Shown piece after piece: positions 7,741 to 59,082 of a stretch of DNA of 64,000 nucleotides (the stretch's first letter is position 1; every line of letters starts with the position of its first letter). The stretch comes from an uncultured Myxococcaceae bacterium (lineage in GTDB: Bacteria > Myxococcota_A > Polyangia > Polyangiales > Ga0077539), in contig CAMFHP010000008.1 of NCBI GenBank assembly GCA_945952225.1, forward strand, positions 1 to 64,000, written 5' to 3'. The position numbers and the translations under genes are program-made. Under the pieces are notes generated by a model. That model saw nothing but the letters and a program-made list of their open reading frames with translations, made no database searches and was not told the origin of the DNA.

Positions 7741-7833
7741 CCCGCCGATTCTCGTCCGTACGTGCCCGCCGCGTCTGGTACGGTCCGCGCCGCCGTCGCG
7801 CCGGGGTGCCGACGTAGCCAAAGGGAGCGTTGG

Positions 7834-9783: not shown

Positions 9784-9835
9784 ATCCCCGTCCTCTCCAC
9801 GTCCATTCCCCCGCACCTGACCGGGAGCGAGAGCC

Positions 9836-12800
9836 ATGTCCGACGCCGCTGAGAACACGGCGGCCTCCGAGCTCGGAGGCAGCTACGAGGTGATCCGCCG
9901 AAGGCTCATCGAGCAGGCGACCGAGCTCGGTCGGCGCGCCGAGCAGCTCAACGCGCGCCGCATCGAGGTGTTCGGCGGCAGCGACCTGAGCCTCACGGCC
10001 ACGGAGCGCGTGCGCACGGAGAACAACTGCCTCCCGCGCGACATCGTCGCCGTGGGGCCGCGGCTCCTCGTGGCCTACGACGTGTTCGTGGGCATGAAGA
10101 GCGAGGTCACCGTGGCCGACGTGTTCGGCCTCCACCGCGTCGTGCGCAACGAGCAGGGCGCACCCACGCTCGAACCGCTGCCCCTCGACGACGGCGGGTT
10201 TCTCAGCGACGAGCGCTTCGTCCGCGAGTTCGGCGACCTGTTCAAGTACGTGCGCGAGGCGCGGATCCTCCAGCTCCGTCGCACCGATCACCGCCTGCTC
10301 GCGGTGTTCTCCACGGGCCCCGGCGCGCGCGATCGGAGGGTGTTCCGCTGGAGCATCGACGCCGCGGGACGCATCACGTACCTCGACGCGCGCGGCGAAG
10401 AGGACCACGTGCGCCCCCGCGCCCACGACTTCACGTGGAAGACCGCCACGCGCGAGAACCACGTGCAGGGCCGCCATCCCCACGTGTCGATCTTCGACGA
10501 GGTCTTCGTCGAGACCATCGGCGGCGACCTCACCATCAAGGTCGAGAACAACACGGCATCGGGCCAGGGCATCTACGCCGAGCCCGTCGACGACGCGAAC
10601 CAGTCGCTCGACGACGCGACGATCGGCTACGCGCGGCTCGGCGCGCTGATCCTGCTGCGCGTGAAGCCCTACCGCGAGAGCGTCACGCGGCATTTTCTCT
10701 ACAACCCGCGGCGTCGTCAGGTGCTGCGCATCGACGCGTTGGAGCAGGCCTGCCTCGCGCTGCCCGAAGACCACGGCGCGATCTTCTCGACGGGCTACTA
10801 CCTCGTCACCGGCGAGCACAAGCTCTTCGACGCCGAGGGCGGGCCCATGACCTTCGAGCGCGTGCTCCGCGCGCCCAACGGCGAGGACGTGCTCTACGTC
10901 TTCTTTCGCGAGAGCGACGGTCGCTACCTGCTCTTTCCGTACAACCTCATTCGCAAAGAGGTCGCGACGCCGATCACCTGCCACGGGTACTCGCTCTTCG
11001 ACGACGGTGCGCTCATCGTCTTTCGTGCGGCGCCCGGTGAAGAGCCTCGCAGGGTGCATCCGATGCAGGTGTGGCGGACGCCCTTCGTCTCCGCGGAGGT
11101 GGCCGCGAGCGCGCCGGTGGCAGGGTCGTTCCTGGGGCGCGTGGGCAACCCCGACCTGGTGCGCGGCATCTCCGAGGCGCTCTCGCTGCGACGACTCGCG
11201 CTCGGCGAGAACCCCGATCGGCAGACCTGGGAAGACCTCATCGCCGCGTCGGGACGCATGGTCGATGCGTTCCACTGGCTCGGCCACGCGGAGTGCTTCG
11301 ACCTGCTGGGTGCGCTCAAGCAGGTGCGCGCCGTCGCCGAGCAGATCGTCGACGAGTACGAGAAGGTCGTCGCGATCCGCGCGCGCGCCGCCGAGGCCCT
11401 CGCGAAGGCCGAGGGCGATCAGAAGGAGCTGCTCCGCGCGCCCGCCGATGCGTCGGAGAGTGCCGACGCGTTCATGCAGGCGCTCACGGCGCTGCGTCGT
11501 CAGCGGGGTGCCCTCGGAACGCTCCGCGAGATGCGCGCGATGAACCTCACGCGCGTCGAGGCGTTGGAGTCCGAGGTCGACGCGCGCTTCACCGAGACGA
11601 GCCTCGCGGCGGCGACGTTCCTGTGCCGCGACGACGCGCTGCGCCCGCTCGTCGAGAAGGTCGACGCCGCGGTCGCGCAGGCCGAGAAGGTCGCGCGCTC
11701 CATCGAGCTCGCCCCCGCACAGGCCGAGGTCGACCGCGTGTACGAGGGCACCACCGTGCTCTCCGAGACCGTCGCGGGACTCCAGGTCGACGACCCCACG
11801 GTGCGCACGCGCATCCTCGACGCGATCGGCGAGGTCTTCGGCCGCGTGAACCGCGCCCGCGCCGTGCTCCAGGGCCGCGCGAAGGAGCTCCGCGGCCACG
11901 AGCTCCGCGCCGAGTTCGCGTCGCAGTCGAAGCTCCTCGCGCAGGCCATCCAGAGCGCGCTCGCGGTGGCCGACACGCCCGAGCGCTGCGACGCATCCCT
12001 CTCGCGCCTCGTGGTGCAGCTCGAAGCCCTCGAAGGCCGCTTCGGCGAGCTCGACGAGTTCGCCCCCGAGCTCGCATCGCGGCGCGAGGAGCTCCACGAC
12101 GCCTTCGGCGCGCGGCGCCAGACCCTCGTCGACGAGCGGCAGAAGCGCGCGGCGAACCTCATGGCCGCGGCGGAGCGCATCCTCCAGGGTGTCGAACGCC
12201 GCGTGCGCGCGATCCCCTCGCCCGAGGAGCTTCACGCGTACTTCGCGGGCGATCCGATGGTGGCGCGGGCCCGCGAGCTCGTGGCGCAGCTCCGCGCGCT
12301 CGGCGACGCGGTGAAGGCCGACGAGATCGAGGGACGCATCAAGTCCGCGCGTCAGGAGGGCACGCGCGCGCTCCGCGACCGCAGCGATCTGTTCGACGGC
12401 GCCGACAACGTCATCCGCTTCGGCCAGCACCGCTTCTTCGTCAACACGCAGCCCCTCGAACTCGCGATCGTTCCCCGTGACGGCGCCCTCGCGCTGCACC
12501 TCACGGGCACGGATTTCTACGAGCCCCTCGAAGACCCGCGCCTCGACGAGGCCCGCGATCTCTGGGCGCAGACGCTCCCCGGCGAGTGCGAGACCGTGTA
12601 CCGCGCGGAGTTCCTCGCGGCGTGTGTGCTCCGCGACGCCGAGCGCAACGAGCGCGGCCTCTCGATCGAGACGCTCCGTCAGGAGTCGCTCAAGTCCGAC
12701 GGGCTCCTCGCGCTCGTGCGAACGTGGTCCGCGGAGCGCCACGACGAGGGCTACGAGCGCGGCGTGCACGACGTCGATGCTGCGGCCATTCTCGGCGCGC

Positions 12801-35567: not shown

Positions 35568-38500
35568 TCAGCGGCGCGCGGCCGTGCGGACCGCGGCGGG
35601 ATCGGGGGTGACAGGCTCGTCGACGAGGGCGCCGTCGGTCACGCGAAGCCCGCGGGCGCGGTGCTCGCGATCGAGACGAACCGTGCGCTCCACGAGGCGC
35701 GTGCGAAGGCCCTGCGGAACGAGGAGCTGCACGCGCACGTCGACCGCGCGGCGGTGTTCGAGGCCCGCCGTGGCGCGCACCACGAGGTGCTGACCGACGA
35801 GCGCGGTGTCGGGTGTCCACACGCGCGCGCCGAGCGATGCGGGCGCGTCGCCGACGACGGTGGGCGCGGTGTCGGCGTCGGTGCGTGCGAGGAGCTCCAG
35901 CGCGAGATCGGGGTGCGTCCATCGCACGATCACGCGGCCCTCACGGGCGTTGCGAAGGCGCGCGGCCACGCGGAGCCACGCGCGCACGGCGGGATCGTCG
36001 GGGCGCAGGGCCACCACGCGGGCCACCTCGGCGTCGAGGATCGCCTGCGCCACGGGGCCCATCGCGTCGCTCCCCGACGCCTCCGATGCGCGACGGAGCA
36101 GACGGAGGCCTTCGTCTTCGCGTCCCGCGGCCAGCGCGCAGAGTGCCACGCGCACGAGCGGGAGCGCGTCGCCGGGGCTCAACATCGCGAGCGTCTGCGC
36201 GTGGTGGTAGGCCTCCGCGGGCCATCCCCAGGTGAGCAGAAGGTCGGAGAGCCGCGCGCGGGCGAAGGGATCGTAGGGCGCGAACTCGGCGACCTCGGTG
36301 AACGCGCGCAACGCCTCGTCGCGGTCGTTGGCGCGCAGGAGGAGCTCGGCCACGCGGCTCCGCACGCGCGCGTCGGCGACGGGGTCGTGGCGCAGTCGCT
36401 CGCCCACCGCGCGTGCCTCGGGGAGCGAGCCTGCGTCTTCGAGGGCGTCCATGAGACGGAGGCGGAGGTCGACGTCGTCGGGCACCGCGACGAGCCACGC
36501 GCGCAACAGGGCGATGCGCTGCGCAGGCGTGAGCGTCGGCGCGGCGAGGCGCGTGAGGAGCGCATCCCAGTCGAGCGACACAGGCCGTGCGCCGCGCGCG
36601 CGCCACACCCACGTGGGACCGAAGCGTCGCGCGATGGCGCCGTCGAGCCACATCACCGACGCGCGGTCGGAGAGGCCGTTGCGAAGCGCCACCACGTCGT
36701 CGGGATTCGTGAGTGCCACGAGGAGCACGTCGAGCAGCGCGCGACGGTCGTCCCACGTGCGCAGCTCGCAGCGTGCGACCGCGGTGTTCCACACGTCGAG
36801 GGCGGTCGAGGCCGATGGGCCGCGCACACGCAGACGCTCGCGCCACAGCGTACGGAGCACGTCGCGTGAGAGGCCCGCGGTGGGCGCGCACACGCGCGTC
36901 GCGGGTCCCGTCGCGATGGGGAGCGACCACGTGAACGCGCGCACGTAGCGTCCCGGCGAGGCGCCGAAGAGCGCGGGCTCGGGCACGCGCACGCCCGACA
37001 CCGCGCGGCGCACACACTCGGCGGCCTCGACGTCGTTGAGGGTCGAGTACGCGAGCGTCGCCGCCGTGACCTGGCCCGTCGCGTCGATGTCGGCCGCGAT
37101 GCCCACGGTGCCCGCGATCGCAGGGCGAAGTGCGCGACGTCGCGTGATGCACACCTCGGCTGCGGGACCTGCCACGGAGAGCGCCTCGACGAGCGCCGCC
37201 GCGCCGCCCACGCCGCGCCCCTCGCCCTCGCCGTGCACCTGCCAGCCGCGTCCGTCGTCGAAGGCCACGGGAACCTCGCGGGCGTCGCGCTCGGTGCGAA
37301 GCACACCGCGCGGAGCGAGGTCCGACGACACACCGAGCGACGGGAGACGCGCGCCGTCGTCCTCGGCGGGCCAGAGGCTCGCGCGCACGGTGAGTCCCTG
37401 CGCCGCGACCGTCGGATCGACGGCGGCCACCACGAGGCCCGACACCGGCGTGATCACACCGAAGCGCGCGCCGAGGTCTGCGATGGAGCCGCGTCCGGCG
37501 CCCCCTCGCGTGAGCGCGTCGATGCGCGCGGAGGCCCAGCGCCGTGCGAGGTCGCCGTGGTCGACCACGTCGCGGAGTTCGAGCGGGAGCGTCCACGCGC
37601 GCGCGGTGAGCCCGTCACGGGCGCGCACGGTGAGCTGCGTGGGGGCGCGTCCGGGGAGCTCGGCGAGGAGGTGCAGCGCATCGCCCGCGACCCACACCGT
37701 GCGGCGCGTGGGCATCGGGTGCGTGAGCAGCGGGCCCGCATCGACGCGAAGGTCGCGAAGACACGGACGGAGCGCGTGGGCCACGATGCGTTCCGCGGCG
37801 TGCACGGCGTCGTCGGCGTCGTCGACACGCAGTGCGAGGCCGCCGTCTTCGGTGAGCGGCGCGAGCACCTCGGGGTGCGCCGCGGCGCCGAGCGTGACGG
37901 TGTAGAGCCGCAGGTCGGGCGCCTGCCGCGTGGCCTCGTCGACGAGACGCGCAGGGTCGAGTGCGCCCACGGTGGGCGTGCCATCGCCGAGGTACACCAC
38001 CGCGCCGTTGCGCGACGGATCGAGGGCCGCGTGCGCGTCGACGAGCATGCGCGCGAGGTCGGTCGCGCCCCCCGAGCGGGCACGGGCCACGGCGTCGAGC
38101 ATCGACTCGCGACGGGCGTCGTCGACGGCGGCGAGCGTGCCCAGCGAAGGCCCTGCGGGGCGCGCGCCGAGGTCGCCGACAAAGAGGGCCGCGCGGTCGT
38201 CGGGACCGAGCTGCCGGAGCATCGCGTCGATGGACGCGCGGGCCAGTTCGAGCGATGCGGGGTCGGTCGCAGCCGAGGTGTCGAGCACGAGCGCGAGGTC
38301 GGTTCCACGTGCGATGGGCGTTGGAAGCGCGACGTCGACGAGGAGGTGGCGCGTGCCATCGGGCTGCGCGGCGACGCTGCGCCACGCGCGGGCCGCGGGG
38401 ATCGTGCGAGGCCTCGCGTCGTCGAGGGTGACCACGAGCGCGCCGCGCGGGCGCCAGTCGCTGCGGCGCATGCGAACGTGCTGGTCGGCGTCGAGGCGCG

Positions 38501-39608
38501 CTCCCTCGGGAGACTCCACGCGTGCGGCGTCGGCCTTCGAGAGGTCGACGTCGAGGGAGAACTCGCCCACCGCCTGCGGCGCCACCGCATCGCCGAGGGG
38601 ATACACCCAGCTCCGTCGGTTGTGCGTGTGCGGGAGCCACTGAACCCACGAGAGTTCCGTGCGGCGTGTGGCGCCGGGCGCGAGCGTGCCGAGGCTCGCG
38701 TACACCTCACCGTCGCCCGCGGAGAGCAGCGCCGCGAGCCCCGCGTGGGCCACCCGTCGCGCGACCACGCCGGGCACCGCGTCGTTCCACCCGTCGCCCT
38801 CGCCCTCGCCCACACGGAACGACGACACGAGCGCGCCGTCGGGCACTCGCACGCGGTACTCCACCGGCGCGACGCGCTCGCCGCCGTTGAAGAACCGCTG
38901 CGTCACCGTGGTGATCGCGAGGTCGCCGGTCACACGCACGACCACCCGCTGCTCGTTGAGCGCGAGCGCGCCGGGCGCCTCGCCGTCGTCGCCGTGCGAC
39001 ACCATGCGTCCCGTCGACGCGTGCGCGGTCTGCGGGGTGGCGGCGCCGCCGGTCCAGTCGTCCCACACGCCCGCGGGGTGGAGTTCGAGCGCGCCCGTTC
39101 CTTCGAGCGACTCGCCCTGCGCGACCTGCCCCTGTCGCGCGCCCTGCTGGTACGAGGCCTCGCCGCGCACGACCACGACGCGCGTGCCCGCAACGCCTGC
39201 CACGCCGCGCTCTACGGAGAACGCCGCGTCGGCGAAGCGCAGCACCGCATCGTCGCCCACAGAGAGCGCGCGCTCGCCCTCGCCCCACGCCGATGCGGAC
39301 ACACGACCGCGCACCACCCGCGCGCGTCCGTCGAGGAACGTGAGCTCGGTGTCGCCCGCGAGGCGCAGCTCGATGCCGTCGTCGGTGCGCACGATGGCGC
39401 GTCCTTCGGCGGCGGTGCGCACGCTTCCGCTGCGTTCGGCGCGCGCGATGCCTTGCGGATCGACGACCGAGCCTGCGCCGAGCACGCGCACGCCCGGGTG
39501 CAGCACCTCGATGGAAGCGCAGGTCGAAGCCCCCGCGCGGAGCCCCTTAGCGCGGCACGACATTTCGCCGAGGAGCGCGACGAGTGCGACGGTGACGGCG
39601 AGCTTCAC
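35568..39608 (-). CDS. Giant secreted FecR-like / VIT / von Willebrand factor A / TPR-like protein (1346 aa); paralog 1
   Basis: GTG start overlapping the stop of the upstream paralog (GTGA). Signal peptide. FecR-like N-terminus. VIT-like segment (VVVRVTGDLAITTVTQRFFN...EYRVRVPDGALVSSF). VWA with a MIDAS-like motif (DLALVLDTSAATD...GGATDLARML...VVYLGDGTP). Alpha-helical TPR-like C-terminal third. Confidence 0.75.
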   Translation of the reverse strand: MKLAVTVALVALLGEMSCRAKGLRAGASTCASIEVLHPGVRVLGAGSVVDPQGIARAERSGSVRTAAEGRAIVRTDDGIELRLAGDTELTFLDGRARVVRGRVSASAWGEGERALSVGDDAVLRFADAAFSVERGVAGVAGTRVVVVRGEASYQQGARQGQVAQGESLEGTGALELHPAGVWDDWTGGAATPQTAHASTGRMVSHGDDGEAPGALALNEQRVVVRVTGDLAITTVTQRFFNGGERVAPVEYRVRVPDGALVSSFRVGEGEGDGWNDAVPGVVARRVAHAGLAALLSAGDGEVYASLGTLAPGATRRTELSWVQWLPHTHNRRSWVYPLGDAVAPQAVGEFSLDVDLSKADAARVESPEGARLDADQHVRMRRSDWRPRGALVVTLDDARPRTIPAARAWRSVAAQPDGTRHLLVDVALPTPIARGTDLALVLDTSAATDPASLELARASIDAMLRQLGPDDRAALFVGDLGARPAGPSLGTLAAVDDARRESMLDAVARARSGGATDLARMLVDAHAALDPSRNGAVVYLGDGTPTVGALDPARLVDEATRQAPDLRLYTVTLGAAAHPEVLAPLTEDGGLALRVDDADDAVHAAERIVAHALRPCLRDLRVDAGPLLTHPMPTRRTVWVAGDALHLLAELPGRAPTQLTVRARDGLTARAWTLPLELRDVVDHGDLARRWASARIDALTRGGAGRGSIADLGARFGVITPVSGLVVAAVDPTVAAQGLTVRASLWPAEDDGARLPSLGVSSDLAPRGVLRTERDAREVPVAFDDGRGWQVHGEGEGRGVGGAAALVEALSVAGPAAEVCITRRRALRPAIAGTVGIAADIDATGQVTAATLAYSTLNDVEAAECVRRAVSGVRVPEPALFGASPGRYVRAFTWSLPIATGPATRVCAPTAGLSRDVLRTLWRERLRVRGPSASTALDVWNTAVARCELRTWDDRRALLDVLLVALTNPDDVVALRNGLSDRASVMWLDGAIARRFGPTWVWRARGARPVSLDWDALLTRLAAPTLTPAQRIALLRAWLVAVPDDVDLRLRLMDALEDAGSLPEARAVGERLRHDPVADARVRSRVAELLLRANDRDEALRAFTEVAEFAPYDPFARARLSDLLLTWGWPAEAYHHAQTLAMLSPGDALPLVRVALCALAAGREDEGLRLLRRASEASGSDAMGPVAQAILDAEVARVVALRPDDPAVRAWLRVAARLRNAREGRVIVRWTHPDLALELLARTDADTAPTVVGDAPASLGARVWTPDTALVGQHLVVRATAGLEHRRAVDVRVQLLVPQGLRTRLVERTVRLDREHRARGLRVTDGALVDEPVTPDPAAVRTAARR

Positions 39609-42600
39609 GGCGCCCTCCGGGTGGCGATGCGAACGTGGGTGTCGGGCTCGGGCGGCGGTGTGAGCGCGCCGTCGACGACGTCGAAGCGCGCACGAGATTG
39701 CGACGCCTCGAAGCGCACGCGCTGACGCACGACACGTTCGCGCGGCGTGCCTTCGTTCCAGAGCACCACGAGCTCGACGTCACCACGCGGACGACCGCCG
39801 CCCGCGCGGCGCACTTCGAGGGAGAGCCCCGCGGGAACGTCGGACCACACCGCGCCTTCGAGGGGCACCTGCGCGCCCACGAGTTCGGCGCGTCGAAGGG
39901 GCACGTCGCGGGTCGCGACCCAGAGCTCGGCCGACTCGTCGGGGTGCAACGCGCGAAGCACCACACGCACCGCGCCGGCACCACGCGCCGCGGGGCTCCG
40001 ACGCCATCGTGCGCGCAGGGCGGCCACGTCGCGCGCGGCGGCGTGCGGGTCGGACGCGGCGAGTGCGAGCTCGGTGGCGATCCACGCGGCGGCGGCTTCG
40101 ACAGTGCCATCGGTCGCACCCGGTCCGCCCGCGGTGCTCACGCGCTCCGCGAGACGGATCGACTCGTCGAAGCGACCGGCCGCGCGCGCGGCCCACGCGA
40201 GTCGCAGCAGGATCTCGGGCGCGTCGCGCCGCAGGGTCGCGAGGGTCTGAAACTGCCGATACGCCTCCTGCGCCCAGCCGTGAGCGAGCGCGATGTCACC
40301 GAGACGCTGACGCGCCGCGGGATCGTCGGGGGCGAACTCCACGATCTCGGAGAACGCGCGCCGCGCCTCGGCCTCGTCGCCGATCGCGAAGAGCGCCTCA
40401 CCCACCACGGTGCGGGCGCGTGCGTCGGTGCGCGGGTCTTCGCGGAGCTTCGCCGCCGTGGCGCGCACCACCTCGCGATCGTCTGCGAGCACCGCGGCGT
40501 CGAGCACGAGCAGCGCCAGTTCGAAGTCGTCACCGTGCACGCGCGACAGGGCCAGCAGCACCGAGAGCCGCTCGCGGGGCGTCACCGCGTGGGCGAGCGC
40601 CGCGGAGAGCGTGGCCGCATCGAGGCGTCCGAGGCCGAGCTCGTCGGCGCGCGCGAGCTCTCCGCGCCGGGCGAGCGTGCGGAGCAGCACGTCGCGCATC
40701 CACGCGCGTGCACCGGCGTCGCGCGCGAGCCCGCGGTAGAGCGCGATCTGTCCGTCGACGGATCCCACCGTCTGCGCGAGCACGCGCAGCATCGCCACGC
40801 GGTCGGGCCATGCGGGCAGCTCGCACGCGCGCTTCGCGTCGCTCCACACGCGGAGCGCGGTGGCCGCGTCGGCCTGCGCGAGCCGTTCGCGCCAGAGCGA
40901 CACGCGCTCGGCGAGGGTCACCGCCGCGGCGTCGCTGCACCGTGCGAGCGCAGTGGTCTCTGCGGGTGCGGGCGCCGACTGGGCGGCGCGCTGCGCCTGG
41001 TCTGCGGCGGGCTCGCGGTGGTCACGGGCGTTGCGCTCGTCGCCGTCGAATCCCGCGACGGACGAGCCCTCGATGCCCCATCGCGACGTCGTCGCACGTC
41101 GACCGCCCGCGGGGCGTAGTCCGTCGGCAGCGCGCTCCGTCGCGGGCATCACGGGTGCCGCGGTCGGAGGTGGCGGCGGCGCGGCGACCGTCGGCTCGGC
41201 CTCCGCAGCGTTGCGATTCATCGGCGCGAGCGGCTGCTCCTGTTGCGCGGCCTCACGGGCCACACCGGGTGACGACGGTGCTTCGGGCTGCGCGGGGATG
41301 TTTGTGGTGCGATCGATGTCCTGCGGAGCCGCGGTGGGTGTGGTGGTCGACGCGCTCGGCGCGGGTGCAGCAACCGGTGCCTGCGCGACGGTCGCGGCGG
41401 GGACCTCTTCGCGCGCCTCGTGGTCGAGGCGTGCGCATCCCACGAGCGGAATCAGATCGACGAGGGACCACCGCAGGTCGCTCTCGCGACGCGCATCGCG
41501 GGGCACGAGCGGCTCGTCTTCCGAGGGCACGTAGAACGACGTGAACGGCGTCACGAGCCCGAAGCGCGTGCCGAGTTCGACGACCACCGCGCGGGGCTCA
41601 CCCGTCGCGAGCAGGTGATCGAGGCGGGCCGACGCCCAGCGCGCGCGCAGGTCGTCGCGGTCCGCGAGGGTGCGCACCGCGGGGTCGACGGTGCGCACAC
41701 GTTCCTGACCATTCCAGCGCGCGCGCACGGTGACACGCGGGGTGCGATCGCCGGTGGCGCGTCCGACGACCACGAGGGGTTCGCCCGCAGGCACGTCGAC
41801 GGGCCCCACCGGGTACACACGTTCGACGTCGGGCCCCAGGTCGACCTGAAACCCTCGCACCAGCGGACGCGTCGCGTGTTCGATCACCTCGATGGCCGTG
41901 CGCGCGACCTCGGCGCGTCGTGCCACGCGCGCGGCGAATCCCGTGGGGGCCGCGATGCCCGCGAGCACGTCGAGCTTCGGCGCGTCGCCCACCGCGATCG
42001 CGTAGAGCCTCGGGTGCGGATCCATGCGCGCGAGCCGCGCCCGCAGCGCCGTCACATCGGCCTCGCCCACCGTCGCATCGCCGTCACCGACGTACACGAT
42101 CACGCCGTTGCGTCGCGGGTCGAGGGCCGCGTGGGCCGCGTCGAACATGGCGCCGAGATCGGTTGCGCCACCGCGGCGGTCGTTGGCCAGCGCGTCGAGC
42201 AGCCGCTGACGGGCCTCGTCGGTCACCGCCGCGAGCCGTGCTTCGGGCGCGCCCACGGACCGCGTGGACACATCCCCCGCGAGCACGAGGAGCCGATCGC
42301 GCGGCGAGAGCGAGCGCACGAGGGCCTCCGCGAAGGCCTGCCCGAGGAGCGCCGAGGCGGGGTCGGTGGCCGCCGAGTGGTCGACCACCACCACGAGGTC
42401 GACGCCCTCGTCGCGCGCGGTGAGCGCCTCGGAGAACGGCGGCTGCACCGCGACGCGCACGAAGCCGAAGCGGTCACCGACGGCGCCCGACGACGGCACG
42501 CGCACGACGCTGGCCGCCAGGGGCGGAGGGCCTTCGAGGTCGAGCACGAAGTCCGCGGCGGGGAGCGTGTCGCTGCGAGAGAATGTGAGGTGGTCTCCAT

Positions 42601-43768
42601 CGCGCACGGCGCCGTCGCTCGCGCGGAGCCCCGTCGACTGCGCGCGGCTCACGTCGACGTCGACGCGGAGCTCTCCCACGCGCGTGCCGAGCGAGGCGAG
42701 CGGGAGCCGCCATGCGCGGCGGCCGTCGACGCCCGCGGAGAGCCACTGGGTGTACGTGATGCGCACGCGCCGCGTGGTGCCCGCGGCGATGGGATAGAGG
42801 CGCGCGTGGTAGCGCCCTGGAGCGTCCCATTCGAGCAGCGCGGGGTCGTGGGTGGAGCCGCGGTAGACCTGCGCCTGGTAGTCGGCGGCGGCGACGTTGC
42901 GCTCGCGCACGAAGCCGTCGACGAGCGCGCCCCGTCGGTCGACGGCGAAGCGTTGGAGCACCGCGCCGCGCGGCACCACGAGGGTGTAGAGGCCCTCGAC
43001 GGTGTCGGCGGTGGGGTTGAAGAAGGTCTCGTCGAGCTCGGTGATCGCGAGGTCACCCACCACGGCGACGTGCGCGTCGAGGCGCTGCAGCGCGAGGGGC
43101 CAGCGCGGCGCGCCCTGCTCGTCGGGGCGTCGCGCAGCCACCGCGCCGATGCCCATGGCGCTCGCCGTCTCGACGCCCGCGGGGAGCTCATCGGCGAGCC
43201 CGCCGGTCCAGTCGTCGAAGAGCGTTCGCGCGTTCACGGTGGCGCCCGAGACATCGATGCGCGCCGACTCGCCTGCGCGCACGAGTCCCTGACGTTCGCC
43301 CGCGCGCCATGCGACCTCGCCCGCGAGCACGTCGACGAGCGCTGCACCGCCCACGCGCGCCACGCTCGCACGCACCCCGCGCAGCGCGAGCGACACCGCG
43401 CCGACCGAGAGCGCCGCAGGGTCGTCGTCAGGCGCGTCGCGACGTCCGCCGATCCACACGCGCCCCGCGTCGAGCGTGAGCGCCGATGCGTTGTCGATGC
43501 GCACGCGCGCGTCGCGATCGAGGAGCACGCGGTCGCCGTGGTCGAGCGCAACGATGGCCCGCCCGGCGCTGTCGGTGCTGAGCACCGCACCCGCGACGAG
43601 GCGACGGAGGTCGGTCACGTCGACCGTGGAGTTCCCCTCGCGCAGCGACACGCCGGCGCGCACGCGCTCGACGTGGGCGACGGTGACGACGAGCGGCGAC
43701 GCGCGCTCGCACGCGGCGGACGACACGAACGTGGCAAGAACAACGGCCGCGGCGAACGAGAAGCGCAT
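39605..43768 (-). CDS. Giant secreted FecR-like / VIT / VWA / TPR-like protein (1387 aa); paralog 2
   Basis: Signal peptide MRFSFAAAVVLATFVSSAAC. Same domain order as its neighbour (VAVVGDLAITELDETFFN...; DLVVVVDHSAATD...GGATDLGAMF...VIVYVGDGDA), plus a Pro/Ala/Thr-rich spacer. Its stop overlaps the start of paralog 1 by 4 nt. Confidence 0.75.
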   Translation of the reverse strand: MRFSFAAAVVLATFVSSAACERASPLVVTVAHVERVRAGVSLREGNSTVDVTDLRRLVAGAVLSTDSAGRAIVALDHGDRVLLDRDARVRIDNASALTLDAGRVWIGGRRDAPDDDPAALSVGAVSLALRGVRASVARVGGAALVDVLAGEVAWRAGERQGLVRAGESARIDVSGATVNARTLFDDWTGGLADELPAGVETASAMGIGAVAARRPDEQGAPRWPLALQRLDAHVAVVGDLAITELDETFFNPTADTVEGLYTLVVPRGAVLQRFAVDRRGALVDGFVRERNVAAADYQAQVYRGSTHDPALLEWDAPGRYHARLYPIAAGTTRRVRITYTQWLSAGVDGRRAWRLPLASLGTRVGELRVDVDVSRAQSTGLRASDGAVRDGDHLTFSRSDTLPAADFVLDLEGPPPLAASVVRVPSSGAVGDRFGFVRVAVQPPFSEALTARDEGVDLVVVVDHSAATDPASALLGQAFAEALVRSLSPRDRLLVLAGDVSTRSVGAPEARLAAVTDEARQRLLDALANDRRGGATDLGAMFDAAHAALDPRRNGVIVYVGDGDATVGEADVTALRARLARMDPHPRLYAIAVGDAPKLDVLAGIAAPTGFAARVARRAEVARTAIEVIEHATRPLVRGFQVDLGPDVERVYPVGPVDVPAGEPLVVVGRATGDRTPRVTVRARWNGQERVRTVDPAVRTLADRDDLRARWASARLDHLLATGEPRAVVVELGTRFGLVTPFTSFYVPSEDEPLVPRDARRESDLRWSLVDLIPLVGCARLDHEAREEVPAATVAQAPVAAPAPSASTTTPTAAPQDIDRTTNIPAQPEAPSSPGVAREAAQQEQPLAPMNRNAAEAEPTVAAPPPPPTAAPVMPATERAADGLRPAGGRRATTSRWGIEGSSVAGFDGDERNARDHREPAADQAQRAAQSAPAPAETTALARCSDAAAVTLAERVSLWRERLAQADAATALRVWSDAKRACELPAWPDRVAMLRVLAQTVGSVDGQIALYRGLARDAGARAWMRDVLLRTLARRGELARADELGLGRLDAATLSAALAHAVTPRERLSVLLALSRVHGDDFELALLVLDAAVLADDREVVRATAAKLREDPRTDARARTVVGEALFAIGDEAEARRAFSEIVEFAPDDPAARQRLGDIALAHGWAQEAYRQFQTLATLRRDAPEILLRLAWAARAAGRFDESIRLAERVSTAGGPGATDGTVEAAAAWIATELALAASDPHAAARDVAALRARWRRSPAARGAGAVRVVLRALHPDESAELWVATRDVPLRRAELVGAQVPLEGAVWSDVPAGLSLEVRRAGGGRPRGDVELVVLWNEGTPRERVVRQRVRFEASQSRARFDVVDGALTPPPEPDTHVRIATRRAP

Positions 43769-44064
43769 GGCGATGGCCGATCCTTCGGGCGTGGAGGGGT
43801 GACGCGAGGCCCGCTTCGATCCGTACGGGCGCGCTGCACGTCGACGTGACGTGGAGCGCGTCGGACCGACGAGGCGCGCGGTGCCTTGGCAAGTTCGCGC
43901 AGCACGTGGCCGAGATGCCCGCCGAAGTGTTGCCCGTGATCGACCCGCGTCGCGACACTTCCCGACGACCGGATGCGGGAGATCACGGCGTGCTCAAGGC
44001 GCGCGGTCATCCCGCCGAGAGGAGCCTCTCGGAAGCGCCGGTTGCGGCGCACTTCGGGAGATCC

Positions 44065-44289
44065 ATGCGAACGAACGCGGTCGAGCACGTGGTGGCGATG
44101 GTGTCGGCGGTGGCCCTCGTGGCGGTGGCCGCCGTGGTGGTGCTGCGAGCGCCGTTGGCGCAGGGCGCGGCCCGTCACGCAGGGCGCCCGCACACGCCCG
44201 GCGTGGTGGAGCGGGCGCAGACGACCGCGTGTTCGGCGCGGTGCGCGGCGGGCCTCGAAGCGTGCCTCGCGCGGTGCGCGCTCCGTTGA
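44065..44289 (+). CDS. Small membrane-anchored Cys-rich hypothetical protein (74 aa)
   Basis: Internal ATG preceded by GGGAGA. One TM helix (VVAMVSAVALVAVAAVVVL) then TACSARCAAGLEACLARCA (CxxxC-x7-CxxxC). It sits inside the 640-nt region upstream of the sigma-54 activator. Weak. Confidence 0.25.
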   Translation: MRTNAVEHVVAMVSAVALVAVAAVVVLRAPLAQGAARHAGRPHTPGVVERAQTTACSARCAAGLEACLARCALR

Positions 44290-44408
44290 ACAGGTGAAAC
44301 TGTCGCGTCGCGCGGAGATCGGTCGAAGGTTTCTCCGGTTCGCGGTCATACACCGTGCAGGACGTTGCGCGGCCCGCGCAGCGCAGCCCCCACGACGAAC
44401 GAGACGCC

Positions 44409-45686
44409 ATGGAACACACCGACACCTCTTCGCTCGATCACGGCCTCCCCTCCCCAGCGGCGTCTGCGCGTCTGCTCGTCGACGAGGGCGGGCGCGCGCC
44501 GCGTACGGTCCTCGTGGCGCCGGGCTCGGTGCTGCGCGTCGGCCGGGCGCCCGACCTGGAGCTCTCGCTCGACGATCCCCGCGCATCGCGCACGCACTGT
44601 CTCCTCCGCTACGACGGCCAGTCGGTCACCCTGCAGGATCTCGAAAGCTCGAACGGCACGTGGATCGGCGCGAACCGCGTCCACGGGACCGTGCCCCTCG
44701 CGAACGGCGCGCTCTTTCGCGTGGGGAGCACCTCGGTGGTGCTGCTCCTGCCCGAGCGTGAGGCGTCGGCGCGCACGCTCCCCGCGACGGCCCCTGCGCC
44801 CGTGATGGTCGACCCTGCGACGGTGTCGCTCTTCGACCTCGCGCGACGCCTCGGACCGACGGACCTCGCGGTGCTGGTGCAGGGCGAGACGGGCTCGGGC
44901 AAGGAGGTGGTCGCGCGGGCGATCCATCAATCGAGCCCGCGGGCGACGGGACCCGTCGTGGTGGTGAACTGCGCGGTGCTCTCCGACGCGGTGAACGAGC
45001 CCGACAACGCGCAGCGCATCGCGGAGTACTTCGACACCGCGGAGGGGGGCACGCTCCTCCTCGACGAGGTGGGCGAGCTGTCGGCCGTGAGCCAGGCGCG
45101 CCTGCTCCGCGCCCTGCAGGAGCGCACGGTGGGGGCGTCGACCACGTCGGGCGTGCGGGTCGTCGCGACGACGCACCTCGACCTCGCGCGCGAGGTGTCG
45201 GCGGGACGCTTCCGCGAAGACCTCTACTTTCGCCTCAACGGCGTGACCGTCGACGTGCCCCCGCTGCGCGCACGCGCGAAGGACATTCCCGCGCTCGTGC
45301 AGCGCATGCTCGAAGAGCACGGCGGCACCCTCACGCTGGGCACCGGCGTCGCGGCGGTGCTCGCGGCGCATCGCTGGCCCGGCAACGTGCGGGAGCTCCG
45401 CAACGCCCTCTCGTCGGCGGTGGCCCTCGCGCAGGGCGGGGTGATCAAGGTCGAGCACCTTCCGCCCGCGGTGCGCGGTGACAGCGCGGCCTCGTCGGCC
45501 CCGGTATCGCCGCTGCGCGAGCGCGTCGATGAGACCGAGCGCAAGGTCATCATCACGGCCCTCGAGAGCACCGGGTGGAACCAGTCGCGCGCCGCGCGGG
45601 TGCTGGGCATCTCGCGCCGCGCGCTGATCTACAAGATGGAGCGCTACGGTCTGAAGCCCCTGCCCAACGGCCAGCGTCACGCCTGA
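44409..45686 (+). CDS. Sigma-54-dependent transcriptional activator with an N-terminal FHA domain (Fis-type HTH)
   Basis: MEHTDTSS..., then an FHA-like segment ([47 protein letters not shown]). AAA+ sigma-54 interaction domain ([27 protein letters not shown], an ESELFGH-equivalent region, GNVRELRN). C-terminal HTH ([22 protein letters not shown]). Confidence 0.85.
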
Positions 45687-45811
45687 CCGACGACGCCCCA
45701 TCGACGGGGCGGCCACCGCACGTTGACGTGCACGTTTCCAGCAGAGACGGGGTATGCTCCGCAGGTGGCGCGCGGCCCCCGATCGCGCCGCGCGGAGTCG
45801 ACCCGACCACG

Positions 45812-47338
<1,527 letters not shown>

Positions 47339-47393: not shown

Positions 47394-48596
47394 ATGCTTC
47401 ACCGTTCCAGCCGTCTCCGCGTTGCCCTCCTCGCGTCGTGCACGTGTGTGCTGTGGGGTGGTGCGACGAACGCGCAGCCCGCGCCGCAGACGACGCCCAC
47501 CGCCGCCCAGGTCGCCGAAGGTCGAGAGCATTTCGACCGCGGAATCAGGCTCTTCGACGAGTCGAACTTCGATGGCGCGCTCGTGGAGTTCCAGCGCGCG
47601 TGGGACCTCTCGCAGCGCTCCTCGGTGCTCACGAACATCGCCGCGGCCTGTCAGGCCCTGCACCGTTACGCCGACGCCATCGCGGCCCTCGAGCGCTACC
47701 TCACCGTGTCGACCGACGCGCGCCAGCGACGACAGGTGCAGCGCGCGATCGAGGAGCTCCGGGAGCTCATCGCCTACGTGCGTGTGACGGTGGTGCCCGC
47801 CGACGCGCAGGTGCGCCTCGACGCGCGCTCCATCGATGCCTCGCAGGAGGTGCTCGTCGGCCCCGGCACGCACCACATCGAGGCGACGCACGCGGGCCGC
47901 GTGGCCGCCTCGGCAGATTTCACCATCGCCTCGGGCGAGCACCGCGAGGTGCGCCTCACCCTCGCGGAGACCGCAGGCGGCACCACCGGACCGACGGTGC
48001 TCATCGTCGACCCCGCGAACCCGCCGCCCCCGCCGCCTCCGCCGCCCCCGCCTCCACCGTCCACGATCGCGGTCGACGGCGTTCCCTCGAACGCCACGCT
48101 GCGCCTCGACGGCGTGCCCATGGTGCTCGACGGACGCCCGCTCACCGTGGCCCCCGGCGCCCATCGCGTCGAGATCTCGGCCCCCGGCATGCGCCCGTGG
48201 AGTGGGCCCATCACAGCCCGCGCGCAGGCGTCGCACCGCCTCCACGTGTCGCTCTCGCCCGCGACCACGGGAATGCGCCCGATCTACTTCATCGCCGCGG
48301 CTTCGGCGACGGGCGTGTTCCTCATCGCGACGGTGGCGACGGGGCTCTCGGCCATCAGCACGCACTCGGAGTACATGTCGCTCGCGCCCGGCGATCCGCG
48401 CATCGCGACGCTCGGCTCCGAGGGGCGCGCGCTCTCCATCGCGTCCGACCTCCTGGGTCTCGGCACCCTCGGACTCGGCGCGCTCTCCGTGGTGCTCTTC
48501 ACCCGCACGTCGTTTCACAACGAGCCCTCGTCGGCGCGCTTCGTTCTCGCGCCGACCGCGGGCGGCGCCACCGCGGGCGCGACCTTCACGTTCTGA
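47394..48596 (+). CDS. Secreted TPR-like / PEGA-domain protein with a 14-Pro linker and a C-terminal TM
   Basis: Signal peptide. TPR-like N-terminus (EGREHFDRGIRLFDESNFDGALVEFQRAWDL). PEGA-like segment (YVRVTVVPADAQVRLDARSI...HHIEATHAG). [15 protein letters not shown]-terminal hydrophobic segment. Confidence 0.55.
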   Translation: MLHRSSRLRVALLASCTCVLWGGATNAQPAPQTTPTAAQVAEGREHFDRGIRLFDESNFDGALVEFQRAWDLSQRSSVLTNIAAACQALHRYADAIAALERYLTVSTDARQRRQVQRAIEELRELIAYVRVTVVPADAQVRLDARSIDASQEVLVGPGTHHIEATHAGRVAASADFTIASGEHREVRLTLAETAGGTTGPTVLIVDPANPPPPPPPPPPPPPSTIAVDGVPSNATLRLDGVPMVLDGRPLTVAPGAHRVEISAPGMRPWSGPITARAQASHRLHVSLSPATTGMRPIYFIAAASATGVFLIATVATGLSAISTHSEYMSLAPGDPRIATLGSEGRALSIASDLLGLGTLGLGALSVVLFTRTSFHNEPSSARFVLAPTAGGATAGATFTF

Positions 48597-56828: not shown

Positions 56829-57132
56829 CGCGCTCGCGTTCGAGCTTCGCGATCCGGGCGTCGACGCGGTCGAGGTGCGAGGTCGAGAAGTGCCGGTCGA
56901 CGAAGCGTCCGACGCCGAAGAGGGCCGCGAGGGCGCAGAACACCTCGGTGCGTTCGGGCGCGCCGAGCCAGGCCTTCAGCGCCCAGCCCACGCCGTACCC
57001 GAGCCCGAAGCACACGATCGCGATGGGAAAGAGCGCGGCGTAGCGGTTGGTCTCCCACCAGGTGATGCGGTCGAGGAGCCGCTGGCGCTCGGCGCGCGCG
57101 AGGGTCAGGGGGTCGTTCACGTCGTCGGCCAT
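56782..57132 (-). CDS. Small membrane hypothetical protein
   Basis: Internal ATG (MADDVNDPLTLARAERQRLLDRITWWETNRYAALFPIAIVCFGLGYGVGWAL...). Two TM segments. Its 3' end overlaps the convergent hydrolase gene. Confidence 0.35.
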   Translation of the reverse strand: MADDVNDPLTLARAERQRLLDRITWWETNRYAALFPIAIVCFGLGYGVGWALKAWLGAPERTEVFCALAALFGVGRFVDRHFSTSHLDRVDARIAKLERERATRPAARAGTPAARG

Positions 57133-57306
57133 CGCAGGGCGCGCGACTCTACACGCCGCGGCCCGCAGCGCCCACACCCCGACCGCGCAGGGCACCGCAG
57201 CGCGTCACCGTCGACGGGAGGCGACATGCGCGGAACACCGTCCACACAAGGGATTTTCGCGCAAATGCGTCGTGACCGTCGCGCGAGGTGCGTTACCGTC
57301 GCGGCC

Positions 57307-59082
57307 ATGCGAACCGCGATGCGACTCGTCTCTCTGGTCACCCTCGCCTCGTGCGCTGCGATGTCGTGCAGCGACGGCGGCACGTCTCCGACGCCGACGC
57401 CTTCGCAAGACGGCGGCGTGTGCACGCCCGACCGCGCGCAGTGGAACAGCACCGTGCGCGGCCTCGTCGCGCAGCAGTGCGGCGGGTGCCACGGCGACAC
57501 GCCCTCGTACGGCGCGCCCTACTCGCTGCTCGACTACGACGCGCTCCTTCGCGCGCGCACCGGCGGACGCCCCGTCGATCGCATCGCGGCGCGCATGATG
57601 GCCGGCACCATGCCCCCGTCGGGCACGCCCGCGCCCACCGACGACGTGGCCCGCGCGATCGTGCAGTGGGCCACCTGCGGCGCGCAGACGCCGTCCGCGG
57701 GTCACGGCCTCCGCGCGACGCGCCCGGTGTTCCGCTCGCCCCCCACCGCGCCCTCGGGCATGGAGACCTGGGACCTCACCGCGCCGCAGTGGAGCGTCGG
57801 CCCCGACGTGCTCGACCGCTACCAGTGTTTCACCTTCGAGTTCCCCGGCACGACCGACCGCTTCGTGCGGCGCTTCGAACTCGTCGCCGACCAGCGCGCG
57901 GTGCTGCACCACGTGGTGCTCCTCCGCGACAACAACCGCGTGGCCCCGACGACGCCGTTCGAGTGCGGGAGCATGCCCGAGGGCAGCGACTACCTCTACG
58001 CCTGGGCGCCCGGTCAGGACGCGCTCCAGTTCCCCGAGGGCGGGCTTCGCATCACGCCGGGGCAGCGCCTCGTGATGCAGATCCATTACAACAACGGACA
58101 GCACCTCCCGAACCTCCGCGACAGCTCGGGCCTGCGCCTCTACCACACGGCGCCGAGCGGCACGGAGTACGGCATGGTCGCGCTCGGTCCGCTCGCCTTC
58201 CAGATCCCCGCGCGCTCCACGGGTCAGACGGCGAGCGCGTGCACCGTCACCCGCGAGTCGCGGATGCTCGCGGGCATGCCGCACATGCACCAGTTCGGCT
58301 CGACCTTCACCGAAGAGATCGTGCGCGCCGACAACTCGCGCGAGTCGCTCATCGGCATCCAGGGATGGCAGTTCGCGTCGCAGCTCTTCTACGACTTCAG
58401 CACCCCGCTCCACCCCGGCGACCGCATCGAGACGCAGTGCGTGTTCGACAACACCACCACGTCGACGGTGCGCAGCGGCGGACGCACGAGCGACGAGATG
58501 TGCTTCAACTTCGCGTACATCACGCCGCCCCCGTCGGAGCGCTACTGCGACCAGCCCGTGGGCTCGCCCGAGACGGTGCCGTACACCCCGGGCATGTGCG
58601 CGATCCCCGCGGCGCCCACGGACATCGCCACGGTGTCGGGCCGCGCGATGGTCGCTGCCGCGCCCGCCCTCGCCGGCGGCACGCTGCGCGACGGACGCTG
58701 GGAGCTCCAGGGCGTCACCTGGTATCTGAACTCGGGCATGGTGGGCACGAGCACCACGATCAACCTCGACGAGACCTCGCTCCACGCGCGCGGCCAGGTG
58801 TGGATCAACGGCACGCAGATCAACGCCGACCTCGTGACCCGTCTCAACCTCACGCTCGTCGGCGGCGCGCGCCTCTCGCGCGACCTGCCCACCACCTTCG
58901 CGGGCGCCCTCGCGAGCGGCACCACCTCGCCGCTGCGCCTCACGGCCTCGTGCCCGAGCTCTGGCGCGCCGCAGACCCTCGACTACGCCGTCGACGGCGA
59001 CACGCTCACCGTGGGACCGCCCGCGCAGAACTACTCGGGGCTCATGGTCACGCCGCGCTACCAGTTCCGCTTCGTGCGCTGA
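57307..59082 (+). CDS. Lipoprotein fusing a mono-heme cytochrome c module to a PHM/DBH-like copper type II monooxygenase domain
   Basis: MRTAMRLVSLVTLASC lipobox. QQCGGCHGD (CxxCH) with a downstream AGTMPP (candidate Met ligand). Then CuH-like HH (VLHHVVLL) plus a third His (MQIHYNN), a CuM-like HxH (GMPHMHQFG), and a Met in DEMCFNFAY. Spacing matches the PHM/DBH N- and C-domains. The start could be the upstream in-frame ATG at 57226. Confidence 0.65.
   Translation: MRTAMRLVSLVTLASCAAMSCSDGGTSPTPTPSQDGGVCTPDRAQWNSTVRGLVAQQCGGCHGDTPSYGAPYSLLDYDALLRARTGGRPVDRIAARMMAGTMPPSGTPAPTDDVARAIVQWATCGAQTPSAGHGLRATRPVFRSPPTAPSGMETWDLTAPQWSVGPDVLDRYQCFTFEFPGTTDRFVRRFELVADQRAVLHHVVLLRDNNRVAPTTPFECGSMPEGSDYLYAWAPGQDALQFPEGGLRITPGQRLVMQIHYNNGQHLPNLRDSSGLRLYHTAPSGTEYGMVALGPLAFQIPARSTGQTASACTVTRESRMLAGMPHMHQFGSTFTEEIVRADNSRESLIGIQGWQFASQLFYDFSTPLHPGDRIETQCVFDNTTTSTVRSGGRTSDEMCFNFAYITPPPSERYCDQPVGSPETVPYTPGMCAIPAAPTDIATVSGRAMVAAAPALAGGTLRDGRWELQGVTWYLNSGMVGTSTTINLDETSLHARGQVWINGTQINADLVTRLNLTLVGGARLSRDLPTTFAGALASGTTSPLRLTASCPSSGAPQTLDYAVDGDTLTVGPPAQNYSGLMVTPRYQFRFVR

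Follow-up and report, generated by a model that had tools for sequence, protein, structure and literature searches.

VIT and VWA domains occur together in the ITI heavy chains (ITIH1-4; compared here with PDB structures 6fpy and 9c4f), in which the VIT domain lies N-terminal to a VWA domain that, in ITIH1 as in integrin beta chains, is integrated with a hybrid domain. The MIDAS of HC1 is functional, and the C-terminal region of ITI heavy chains holds a cleavage and transfer site that serves their linkage to glycosaminoglycan; we know of no bikunin/chondroitin/hyaluronan chemistry in bacteria. The VIT-VWA core itself is shared by bacterial envelope proteins, i.e. TIGR03788 (marine sortase target), TIGR04477 (XrtN VIT protein) and YfbK-like proteins annotated as 'Ca-activated chloride channel homolog'. 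Other architectures bear on the proteins described below: the FecR/PupR sigma regulators (PDB 6ovk), with their periplasmic FecR (PF04773) beta domain; TonB/TolA and GltG/GltJ (AgmX/PglI), whose related domain is C-terminal, the TonB family being energy transducers with an N-terminal inner-membrane anchor and motor genes of ExbB/ExbD type; and the BatA-E operons, whose products include a DUF58 protein and a MoxR ATPase and lack VIT and FecR-like domains. In myxobacteria, the VWA lipoproteins CglB and CglD function in adhesion, CglB being described as a small protein (beta-jellyroll plus VWA) with many cysteines and a complete MIDAS (D56, S58, S60, T182, D211), which co-occurs with Agl-Glt genes (PMC9946355).

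The window, which is the whole stretch of 64,000 nucleotides analyzed here, contains two overlapping large genes, hereafter A and B, read from the open reading frames and their translations:

39605..43768, minus strand: gene A, predicted lipoprotein of 1387 aa, first of the pair, ATG start
35568..39608, minus strand: gene B, predicted lipoprotein paralog of 1346 aa, second of the pair, GTG start
39605..39618, minus strand: junction, GGAGGG, about 4-5 nt, then GTGA (A stop overlapping B start)

An earlier note on this DNA had described a tandem pair of 1346-aa and 1387-aa proteins, and both reading frames are indeed found on the minus strand. Spurious long ORFs are common in DNA of 72-75% GC; A and B are considered real genes because their codon-position composition is of coding type (GC3 0.86-0.87, 0.86 for A, with a matching GC1/GC2 pattern) and because searches returned hundreds of homologs, with orthologs at 54-68% identity for A and 45-63% for B. 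The pair is not an assembly artefact either, since the two genes share no long near-identical DNA (among direct repeats, the longest span 31-52 nt and are 62-78% identical) and since an independent ENA assembly (ERZ12289976, NODE_832) holds the identical B protein and the same two gene calls, in agreement with the earlier reading of the genes as diverged.

Pairwise alignment revealed two collinear blocks (residues 1-751, 35% identity, E 3e-82; residues 944-1385, 37% identity, E 7e-41), which confirms at the sequence level that A and B are diverged paralogs of about 35% identity, with one architecture in a tandem duplication, as had been proposed. This duplication is old: separate A and B orthologs are present in every related genome examined, and the tree places it before the lineage of the window and Sandaracinaceae diverged. 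A tandem gene-1/gene-2 arrangement with a 1- or 4-nt overlap was found in 13 contexts, i.e. the window and 12 others (L002-L005, L010, L011-L014, L016-L018), including cultured Sandaracinus amylolyticus, while the flanks are otherwise unrelated. In no genome context examined did either gene occur alone; the call for the second gene of L018 is only 794 aa long, so that this pair may be degraded or the call an assembly error. Collectively, these comparisons indicate that Polyangia myxobacteria keep the two genes together as a unit. The 4-nt stop/start overlap noticed earlier (GTGA, 39605-39608) is likewise conserved in orthologs: ATGA, GTGA or TGATG with a GGAGG-like site was also read in L003, L004, L005, L010 and L011-L014, the site lying 5' of the overlap in all nine junctions read.

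Both chains begin with a signal peptide, and the FecR-like, VIT, VWA and TPR regions follow in the same order, as the earlier note had stated. The N-terminal features of A are:

43709..43768, minus strand: signal peptide with lipobox (..FVSSAAC, Cys20), from the translation
43229..43708, minus strand: FecR/PupR-CJM-like all-beta domain, aa ~21-180 (Pfam, PDB profile, AF2 model)
43199..43219, minus strand: conserved linker motif [FW]-x-D-W-T-G-G, aa 184-190 (alignments)

The lipobox cysteine is present wherever an ortholog N-terminus was recovered, for both genes; the lipobox of B is degenerate (GEMSC), where orthologs have LAAC, VVAC or AAAC. The proteins had been described as secreted; the invariant cysteine predicts lipid-anchored lipoproteins rather than merely secreted ones. 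The FecR-like N-terminus was recovered by Pfam (PF04773) in A (25.2 bits, aa 62-152, cut-off 24), B scoring under the cut-off (15.7 bits), and the family N-terminal profile matches PupR (6ovk_R, E 9e-4); the region is all-beta in the AF2 model of A. The linker motif, which lies at the edge of a low-confidence linker of this model (pLDDT 55-85), has an invariant D, T and one G, with W and the other G at least 90% conserved in a 79-sequence alignment, and is also seen in the 19 aligned pair members; its W-T-G core is kept throughout.

The FecR-like domain had suggested an anti-sigma-like role, a possibility which the architecture largely refutes. In contrast to FecR/PupR regulators, A and B lack an anti-sigma domain and a TM segment, and an STN-like C-terminal subdomain was not detected: the FecR-like domain follows directly on the lipobox, whose signal is the sole hydrophobic segment, and no cytoplasmic domain was found in either protein. 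Neither an ECF sigma gene nor a TonB-dependent transducer lies near the pair in the window or the other contexts. A Bat/vWA-MoxR type system fares no better, as the ~10 kb around the pair, in the window as in the other contexts, encode no MoxR-class AAA+ ATPase, no DUF58 gene lies in the neighborhood, and PADLOC returned no defense system. It is thus very improbable that the pair is a cell-surface-signaling component of the FecR type or a Bat-like system.

The FecR-like domain is followed by a module resembling that of ITIH:

41519..43096, minus strand: A, VIT (aa 227-339), hybrid beta domain, VWA (aa ~457-640) and closing helices (to ~750)
42335..42400, minus strand: A, variant first MIDAS loop (DLVVVVDHSAAT: D-x-S-x-A, not D-x-S-x-S), from the alignment of 19 pair members
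37812..38955, minus strand: B, VIT (from aa 218) to VWA (to aa ~599), by Pfam and collinearity with A

The VIT and VWA assignments of the earlier note stand, VIT (PF08487) exceeding the Pfam cut-off of 26.5 bits in A (60.4 bits) and, barely and as a partial match, in B (27.3 bits), and VWA, sub-threshold in both, being established from profile and structure; B orthologs carry precomputed VIT and VWA_3 matches. Searched against the PDB, the family profile matched ITIH4 (3e-30), ITIH1 (2e-19), the PARP4 VIT (8e-8) and TonB (2e-3). As in ITIH, VIT precedes VWA, and VWA is integrated with a hybrid domain. However, the A/B module is bacterial and lipid-anchored, and the chains carry the FecR-like domain before it and, after it, a Pro-rich spacer (in B with the TonB-C-like domain), TPR repeats and a beta-sandwich. 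The profile match stops at residue 697 of the ITIH4 chain and Pfam detects no ITI_HC_C domain in A or B at E<=1; the heavy-chain C-terminal region with its glycosaminoglycan site was not found. Moreover, while the MIDAS of HC1 is functional and that of CglB complete, all 19 pair members lack the complete motif (DxSxS...T...D), keeping four of its five residues without the second Ser (D-x-S-[AG]-[AG]-T, then GGA[TS]D, then GD[GA]). With no complete MIDAS in the family, ligands may not be captured in the classical metal-dependent way.

The VIT-VWA combination had been called rare among bacterial cell-surface modules, which the several curated bacterial families and the size of the A/B family (at least 113 clusters at 50% identity, E<=1e-30) do not support. 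TIGR03788 matches A (residues 436-764, E 2e-21) and B (E 4e-17), its score of 75.9 bits being far under the equivalog cut-off of 551.65, and several homologs bear the JGI name 'Ca-activated chloride channel family protein'. A and B differ from these proteins in being twice as long, in their extra domains and in always forming a paralog pair. We infer that the family is a clade-specific version of a known VIT-VWA module.

Beyond this module the two chains read as follows:

40949..41431, minus strand: A, Pro/Ala-rich low-complexity spacer, aa ~780-940 (translation)
39644..40939, minus strand: A, family-specific C-terminal module of two-Cys helical region, TPR solenoid and beta-sandwich (invariant columns; Pfam TPR)
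36924..37208, minus strand: B, TonB/TolA-C-like domain, aa 801-895, AgmX/PglI C-terminal type
35616..36890, minus strand: B, helical/TPR solenoid (aa ~907-1219) and C-terminal beta-sandwich (aa ~1225-1331)

Pfam supports the TPR repeats reported earlier. The family-specific module forms the C terminus of full-length matches (about 1,300-1,620 aa), and its helical region has two invariant cysteines (C..LWRERL..CEL), which suggests an extracytoplasmic location. A and B end in ..IATRRAP and ..RTAARR, without an LPXTG or PEP-CTERM sorting signal, and Pfam and NCBIfam revealed no catalytic domain. The TonB-C-like domain of B, a feature outside the earlier description, scores under the NCBIfam cut-off, and an HMM of it found no match in A, which has lost the domain, or in the close orthologs of A. 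It has a TonB-domain fold preceded by a Pro-rich spacer; it differs from the tails of TonB/TolA and GltG/GltJ in being internal and in belonging to a lipoprotein, and neither ExbBD nor TolQR genes are near the pair. In contrast to CglB, the pair has no adjacent Agl or Glt genes.

Two readings of the pairing have to be weighed here. A and B could be independent paralogs with separate ligands, i.e. surface adhesins or matrix binders like CglB or ITIH, their tandem order being a relic of duplication. Their identity of only about 35%, the TonB-C-like domain in the middle of B where A has just a spacer, and the known VWA lipoprotein adhesins of myxobacteria agree with this, but a relic would hardly retain gene order, overlap and Shine-Dalgarno-like site at 30-40% protein identity while all flanks changed, nor would one expect that no context examined holds one gene alone; we consider it unlikely. 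The explanation we favor, to which we give an even chance as a whole, is that a bicistronic operon, complete in itself, encodes A and B as anciently duplicated ~145-kDa lipoproteins of the Polyangia cell envelope. The stop/start overlap and the internal Shine-Dalgarno-like site would couple translation, so that A and B would be made 1:1, and the products would most likely assemble into a hetero-oligomer anchored through their N-terminal lipids. Each chain would be a string of protein-binding modules (FecR/PupR-type beta domain, VIT-hybrid-VWA, Pro-rich spacer, solenoid and beta-sandwich), B alone adding the TonB/TolA-C-like domain after its spacer. The role of the complex, whether periplasmic or on the cell surface, would be that of a multivalent tether or a scaffold for adhesion, and neither that of an anti-sigma factor nor that of an enzyme. 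Precedents are the paired homologous ITIH heavy chains with the cation-dependent self-association of HC1 (PMC7170535) and the myxobacterial VWA lipoprotein adhesin CglB (PMC9946355). A bolder and rather improbable version is an obligate hetero-dimeric receptor of integrin/ITIH type, whose two chains would together bind a polymer or partner outside the cell or in the periplasm, the linker motif being a processing or docking site. Such a receptor could cross-link matrix, in which case it would be the bacterial equivalent of the inter-alpha-inhibitor with its two heavy chains, or it could pass 'outside-in' information to Ser/Thr-kinase/FHA-sigma54 signaling.

Genes for such signaling adjoin A in the window, with rpsA on the downstream flank of the pair:

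44065..44289, plus strand: conserved 74-aa ORF, TM helix and Cys-rich tail, upstream of the enhancer-binding protein gene
44406..45686, plus strand: FHA - sigma54-interaction AAA+ - HTH_8 enhancer-binding protein (EBP), divergent from A (Pfam; start inferred)
45575..47338, plus strand: membrane Ser/Thr kinase with kinase domain, TM aa 432-456 and PEGA-like periplasmic tail; its true start is probably internal
47394..48596, plus strand: signal-peptide TPR/PEGA protein with C-terminal TM segments

A and B might accordingly be an envelope sensor, an extracytoplasmic cue being relayed, e.g. through the PEGA/TPR portions that the kinase and the TPR/PEGA protein have in the periplasm, to the kinase, whose phosphothreonine would recruit the FHA-sigma54 activator that controls the A/B operon. 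The divergent EBP gene, the kinase with its PEGA-like tail and the secreted TPR/PEGA protein favor this idea, and the cluster also lies beside the pair in close relatives (L004, L006, L007, L009 and L010, in L010 even without the rpsA flank). It is absent in L002, L003 (whose gene 1 is 83% identical to that of L010), L005, L011-L014 and L016-L018, so that, of the two kinds of conservation that the earlier note proposed to check, that of the tandem pair holds across the 13 contexts and that of kinase and activator in close relatives only. A Ser/Thr kinase gene is also near the pair in L003, L011, L012 and L014, which is weak evidence because myxobacterial genomes are rich in such kinases. Upstream of A (43769-44400), no sigma54 -24/-12 element (TGGCAC-N5-TTGCW) was found with up to two mismatches, a degenerate promoter being possible; at 10 loci, the best GG-N10-GC sites reached 6-8 of 11 matches, none exceeding 8/11 or conserved in position. 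A functional link of the pair to the adjacent regulatory cluster is therefore not supported, and we regard the sensor as doubtful. The examined contexts yielded no conserved third partner gene that would point to the ligand, and the gene neighborhoods show a pair that is independent of its flanking genes.

Polyangia are social, matrix-building and predatory bacteria with very large genomes. The A/B family has no bearing yet on a long-standing open question, nor does it conflict with current knowledge. It is recognizable by its C-terminal module together with the x-D-W-T-G-G motif and, being present in cultured Sandaracinus amylolyticus, is directly testable. If the scaffold explanation is correct, Polyangia would hold clade-wide, always-paired and very large envelope lipoproteins of ITIH/integrin-like type, and paired heavy-chain-like VIT-VWA proteins would have an example among bacteria.

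In the window, whose GC content stays at 69-76% throughout, screening of open reading frames by codon-position GC retained the two long minus-strand genes listed below, at exactly the coordinates that the earlier note had assigned to them.

39605-43768, minus strand: gene A (gene-1 of the pair), 1387 aa, ATG start
35568-39608, minus strand: gene B (gene-2 of the pair), 1346 aa, GTG start

The 4-nt overlap described between the stop of A and the start of B was read at the junction as GTGA, and a GGAGGG sequence is located 5 bases upstream of the GTG. The proposed tandem paralogy was borne out by BLASTP, which aligned the two proteins in two collinear blocks, residues 1-751 (35% identity, E 3e-82) and residues 944-1385 (37% identity, E 7e-41), separated by a region without alignment. 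Near-identical DNA would have pointed to an assembly duplication; no extended DNA similarity was found between the two genes, which are only ~35% identical as proteins. An independent ENA assembly (ERZ12289976 NODE_832) contains an identical B beside a 1387-aa gene, also with a 4-nt overlap. An assembly artefact is thus ruled out by the lack of long similar DNA repeats, the protein divergence and the agreement between assemblies, and the pair is real.

The pair has also been conserved in related genomes. The tandem arrangement was found in 12 of the 12 other contexts with enough flanking sequence (loci L002, L003, L004, L005, L010, L011, which is Sandaracinus amylolyticus CP070225.1, region 7,946,888-7,971,636, L012, L013, L014, L016, L017 and L018), while L008 and L015 contain partial pairs at contig ends. 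In every readable junction the genes overlap by 1 or 4 nt (ATGA, GTGA or TGATG), with a GGAGG-like site ahead of the overlap in all nine junctions read. Gene order and overlap are strictly kept across deep divergence, the flanks differ almost completely from context to context, and no conserved third partner gene was found in 13 contexts: the conserved entity is the two-gene unit. Neighbour-joining analysis of 19 pair members yielded four clades, and the gene-1 proteins of the window lineage cluster with those of Sandaracinaceae, so the duplication is older than the split between these lineages. In a Polyangiaceae MAG (L018, 12338-16400), gene-2 is called as 794 aa only and followed by ~1.7 kb without a called gene, which could reflect a frameshift, a pseudogene or an assembly error.

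Judging from their source names, homologs are distributed among Polyangiales, Sandaracinaceae, Polyangiaceae, Sorangiineae and unclassified Myxococcota, under generic names such as "VIT domain-containing protein", "AgmX/PglI C-terminal domain-containing protein", "Ca-activated chloride channel family protein" and "TPR repeat protein". A comparison of the 448-residue C-terminal module of A with 1.84 billion cluster representatives retrieved 113 proteins at E<=1e-30, a number that rises to 278 at E<=1e-10. In full-length matches (about 1,300-1,620 aa) the module is located at the C-terminal end and, as far as this search shows, it belongs to this architecture only.

The FecR/VIT/VWA/TPR layout initially proposed was examined with Pfam, which supports VIT in A (residues 227-339, E 2e-16) and, as a partial match, in B (27.3 bits, cut-off 26.5), as well as TPR in both proteins. 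FecR passes the cut-off of 24 in A (residues 62-152, 25.2 bits) but not in B (15.7 bits), and VWA is weak in both. While a single-sequence search of PDB sequences returned TPR matches only, a family profile built on 79 sequences reached ITIH4 (inter-alpha-inhibitor heavy chain; E 3e-30), ITIH1 (2e-19), the VIT domain of PARP4 (8e-8) and TonB chains (~2e-3). On the basis of this profile, the ITIH-like core of A and B is beyond doubt. An N-terminal profile (165 residues) similarly matches the periplasmic domain of the PupR sigma regulator (6ovk_R, E 9e-4); like those to ITIH, PARP4 and TonB, this match was reached only with a family profile. The AF2 model of B residues 740-1346 (pLDDT 88.8) shows three parts, among them a C-terminal beta-sandwich.

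Between the alignable halves, B contains an AgmX/PglI-C-terminal-like mid-domain according to NCBIfam (E 1.7e-7, 31.3 bits against a cut-off of 40). An HMM made from this domain matches 100% of the gene-2 proteins examined and some gene-1 proteins only, namely the first gene of Sandaracinus amylolyticus, that of L014 and, among the 44 closest homologs of A (P0001-P0044), nine proteins. Neither A of the window nor the gene-1 orthologs in the loci retrieved are matched, a Pro/Ala-rich spacer alone being present there.

Both N-termini consist of a signal peptide ending in a lipobox Cys, which is kept at both gene positions in every ortholog with a recovered N-terminus. The proteins, previously described as secreted, do possess a signal peptide, but this conserved residue marks them as lipoproteins. 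The VWA metal site (MIDAS, classically D-x-S-x-S) has a variant form, D-x-S-[AG]-[AG]-T followed by GGA[TS]D and GD[GA], the second Ser being missing from each of the four clades. A conserved [FW]-x-D-W-T-G-G motif (43199-43219, minus strand; A residues 184-190), located in the flexible linker that joins the FecR-like domain to VIT, is kept in the four clades and in both paralogs, W-T-G being retained throughout, and could be a docking or processing site. Where the helical C-terminal module begins (C..LWRERL....CEL..W.DR), two invariant Cys fit a predicted oxidising, extracytoplasmic location.

Four genes are divergent from A, encoding a 74-aa ORF, an FHA-sigma54-AAA+-HTH activator, a membrane-bound Ser/Thr kinase carrying a PEGA-like tail in the periplasm, and a signal-peptide TPR/PEGA protein. 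The first probably encodes a small membrane protein that belongs to this regulatory cluster and has escaped annotation; it is conserved at the same position in L001, L006, L009 and L010.

44065-44289, plus strand: ORF of 74 aa whose product combines an N-terminal TM helix with a Cys-rich tail (..AC..RC......C..RC), directly upstream of the activator

The tie of the pair to the neighbouring kinase and activator does not hold across the family. The cluster adjoins the pair in L004, L006, L007, L009 and L010 but does not border it in L002, L003, L005, L016, L017, L018 or any Sandaracinaceae-type context, even though the gene-1 proteins of L003 and L010 share 83% identity. A sigma54 promoter upstream of A was considered and dropped: neither a consensus search (strict or with 2 mismatches) nor a scan for GG-N10-GC across 10 orthologous upstream regions revealed a -24/-12 element that was convincing or kept its position, in the window or in nine orthologous regions upstream of A. 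Because the cluster is absent from other contexts and no such element is present, the link is positional and lineage-restricted; within that subclade it may be regulatory. A conserved DNA block, GCGCGTCGCG ... CCGTGCGATGGT, located about -70 to -40 of the gene-A start in L001, L004, L006, L007 and L009 and weaker in the window (~43810-43840), fits neither the sigma54 nor the sigma70 consensus; it may serve as a promoter or an operator.

In L011, L012 and L014, a short cytoplasmic Ser/Thr kinase (322-326 aa), a His_Phos_1 phosphatase and two methyltransferase genes lie upstream of the pair. The Pkinase and His_Phos_1 combination recurs only within Sandaracinaceae, and may represent lineage synteny rather than a functional link.

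Elsewhere in the window, a large uncharacterised two-gene unit with no relation to the pair (7741-15535, plus strand) encodes a 680-aa ORF without Pfam match, then a 1904-aa protein with DUF3686 ("ATPase involved in DNA repair"), DUF7902 and AAA domains. A 735-aa protein (56875-59082, plus strand) combines the two domains of copper type II ascorbate-dependent monooxygenases (PHM/DBH-like) and is followed by a Rieske-domain protein, a pairing unusual for bacteria.

Regarding known systems, A and B have a module in common with the heavy chains of ITIH and with VIT-VWA proteins of bacterial envelopes, and would work in a similar way, although the pair differs from ITIH proper by its incomplete MIDAS and the lack of the heavy-chain C-terminal region. 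The anti-sigma-like role suggested from the FecR-like N-termini is not supported since, unlike FecR anti-sigma factors, A and B are devoid of a cytoplasmic domain and a TM segment and have no sigma partner. They also lack the TonB-type membrane anchor and motor genes, and, in contrast to Bat and vWA-MoxR systems, the pair has no MoxR; a vWA-MoxR paper in eLife has no bearing on it. Both proteins score far below the cut-off of sortase/exosortase target families and have no sorting signal, LPXTG and PEP-CTERM tails being absent. No catalytic domain was found in either, and a defence-system reading was dropped, no PADLOC model matching. No publication on this family came up when the literature was searched for VIT/VWA/FecR/TPR in myxobacteria or Sandaracinus.

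A and B are co-oriented, overlapping genes for paralogous lipoproteins made of binding-type modules only: a FecR-like beta domain, an ITIH/integrin-like VIT-VWA, a TonB-C-like domain, TPR and a beta-sandwich. Translation of B coupled to that of A would yield equal amounts of the two chains, which could associate into a hetero-oligomer held by their N-terminal lipids and serve the envelope as a multivalent tether or a scaffold for adhesion, a proposal that has about an even chance of being right. It is supported by two precedents: by mammalian inter-alpha-inhibitor, which has two homologous heavy chains and whose HC1 self-associates via its MIDAS (PMC7170535), and by the Myxococcus VWA lipoprotein CglB, a gliding adhesin (PMC9946355). 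Caution is required because the MIDAS is incomplete in every member and neither a ligand nor a third partner was found; the three possible places of such a scaffold, inner membrane, outer membrane or cell surface, also weigh against over-reading. Confidence is far higher in the structural annotation than in the proposed function. Not surprising in itself, the pair represents a clade-specific variant, a fused FecR-like/ITIH-like/TonB-C-like/TPR lipoprotein which always occurs as a paralog pair with probable translational coupling.
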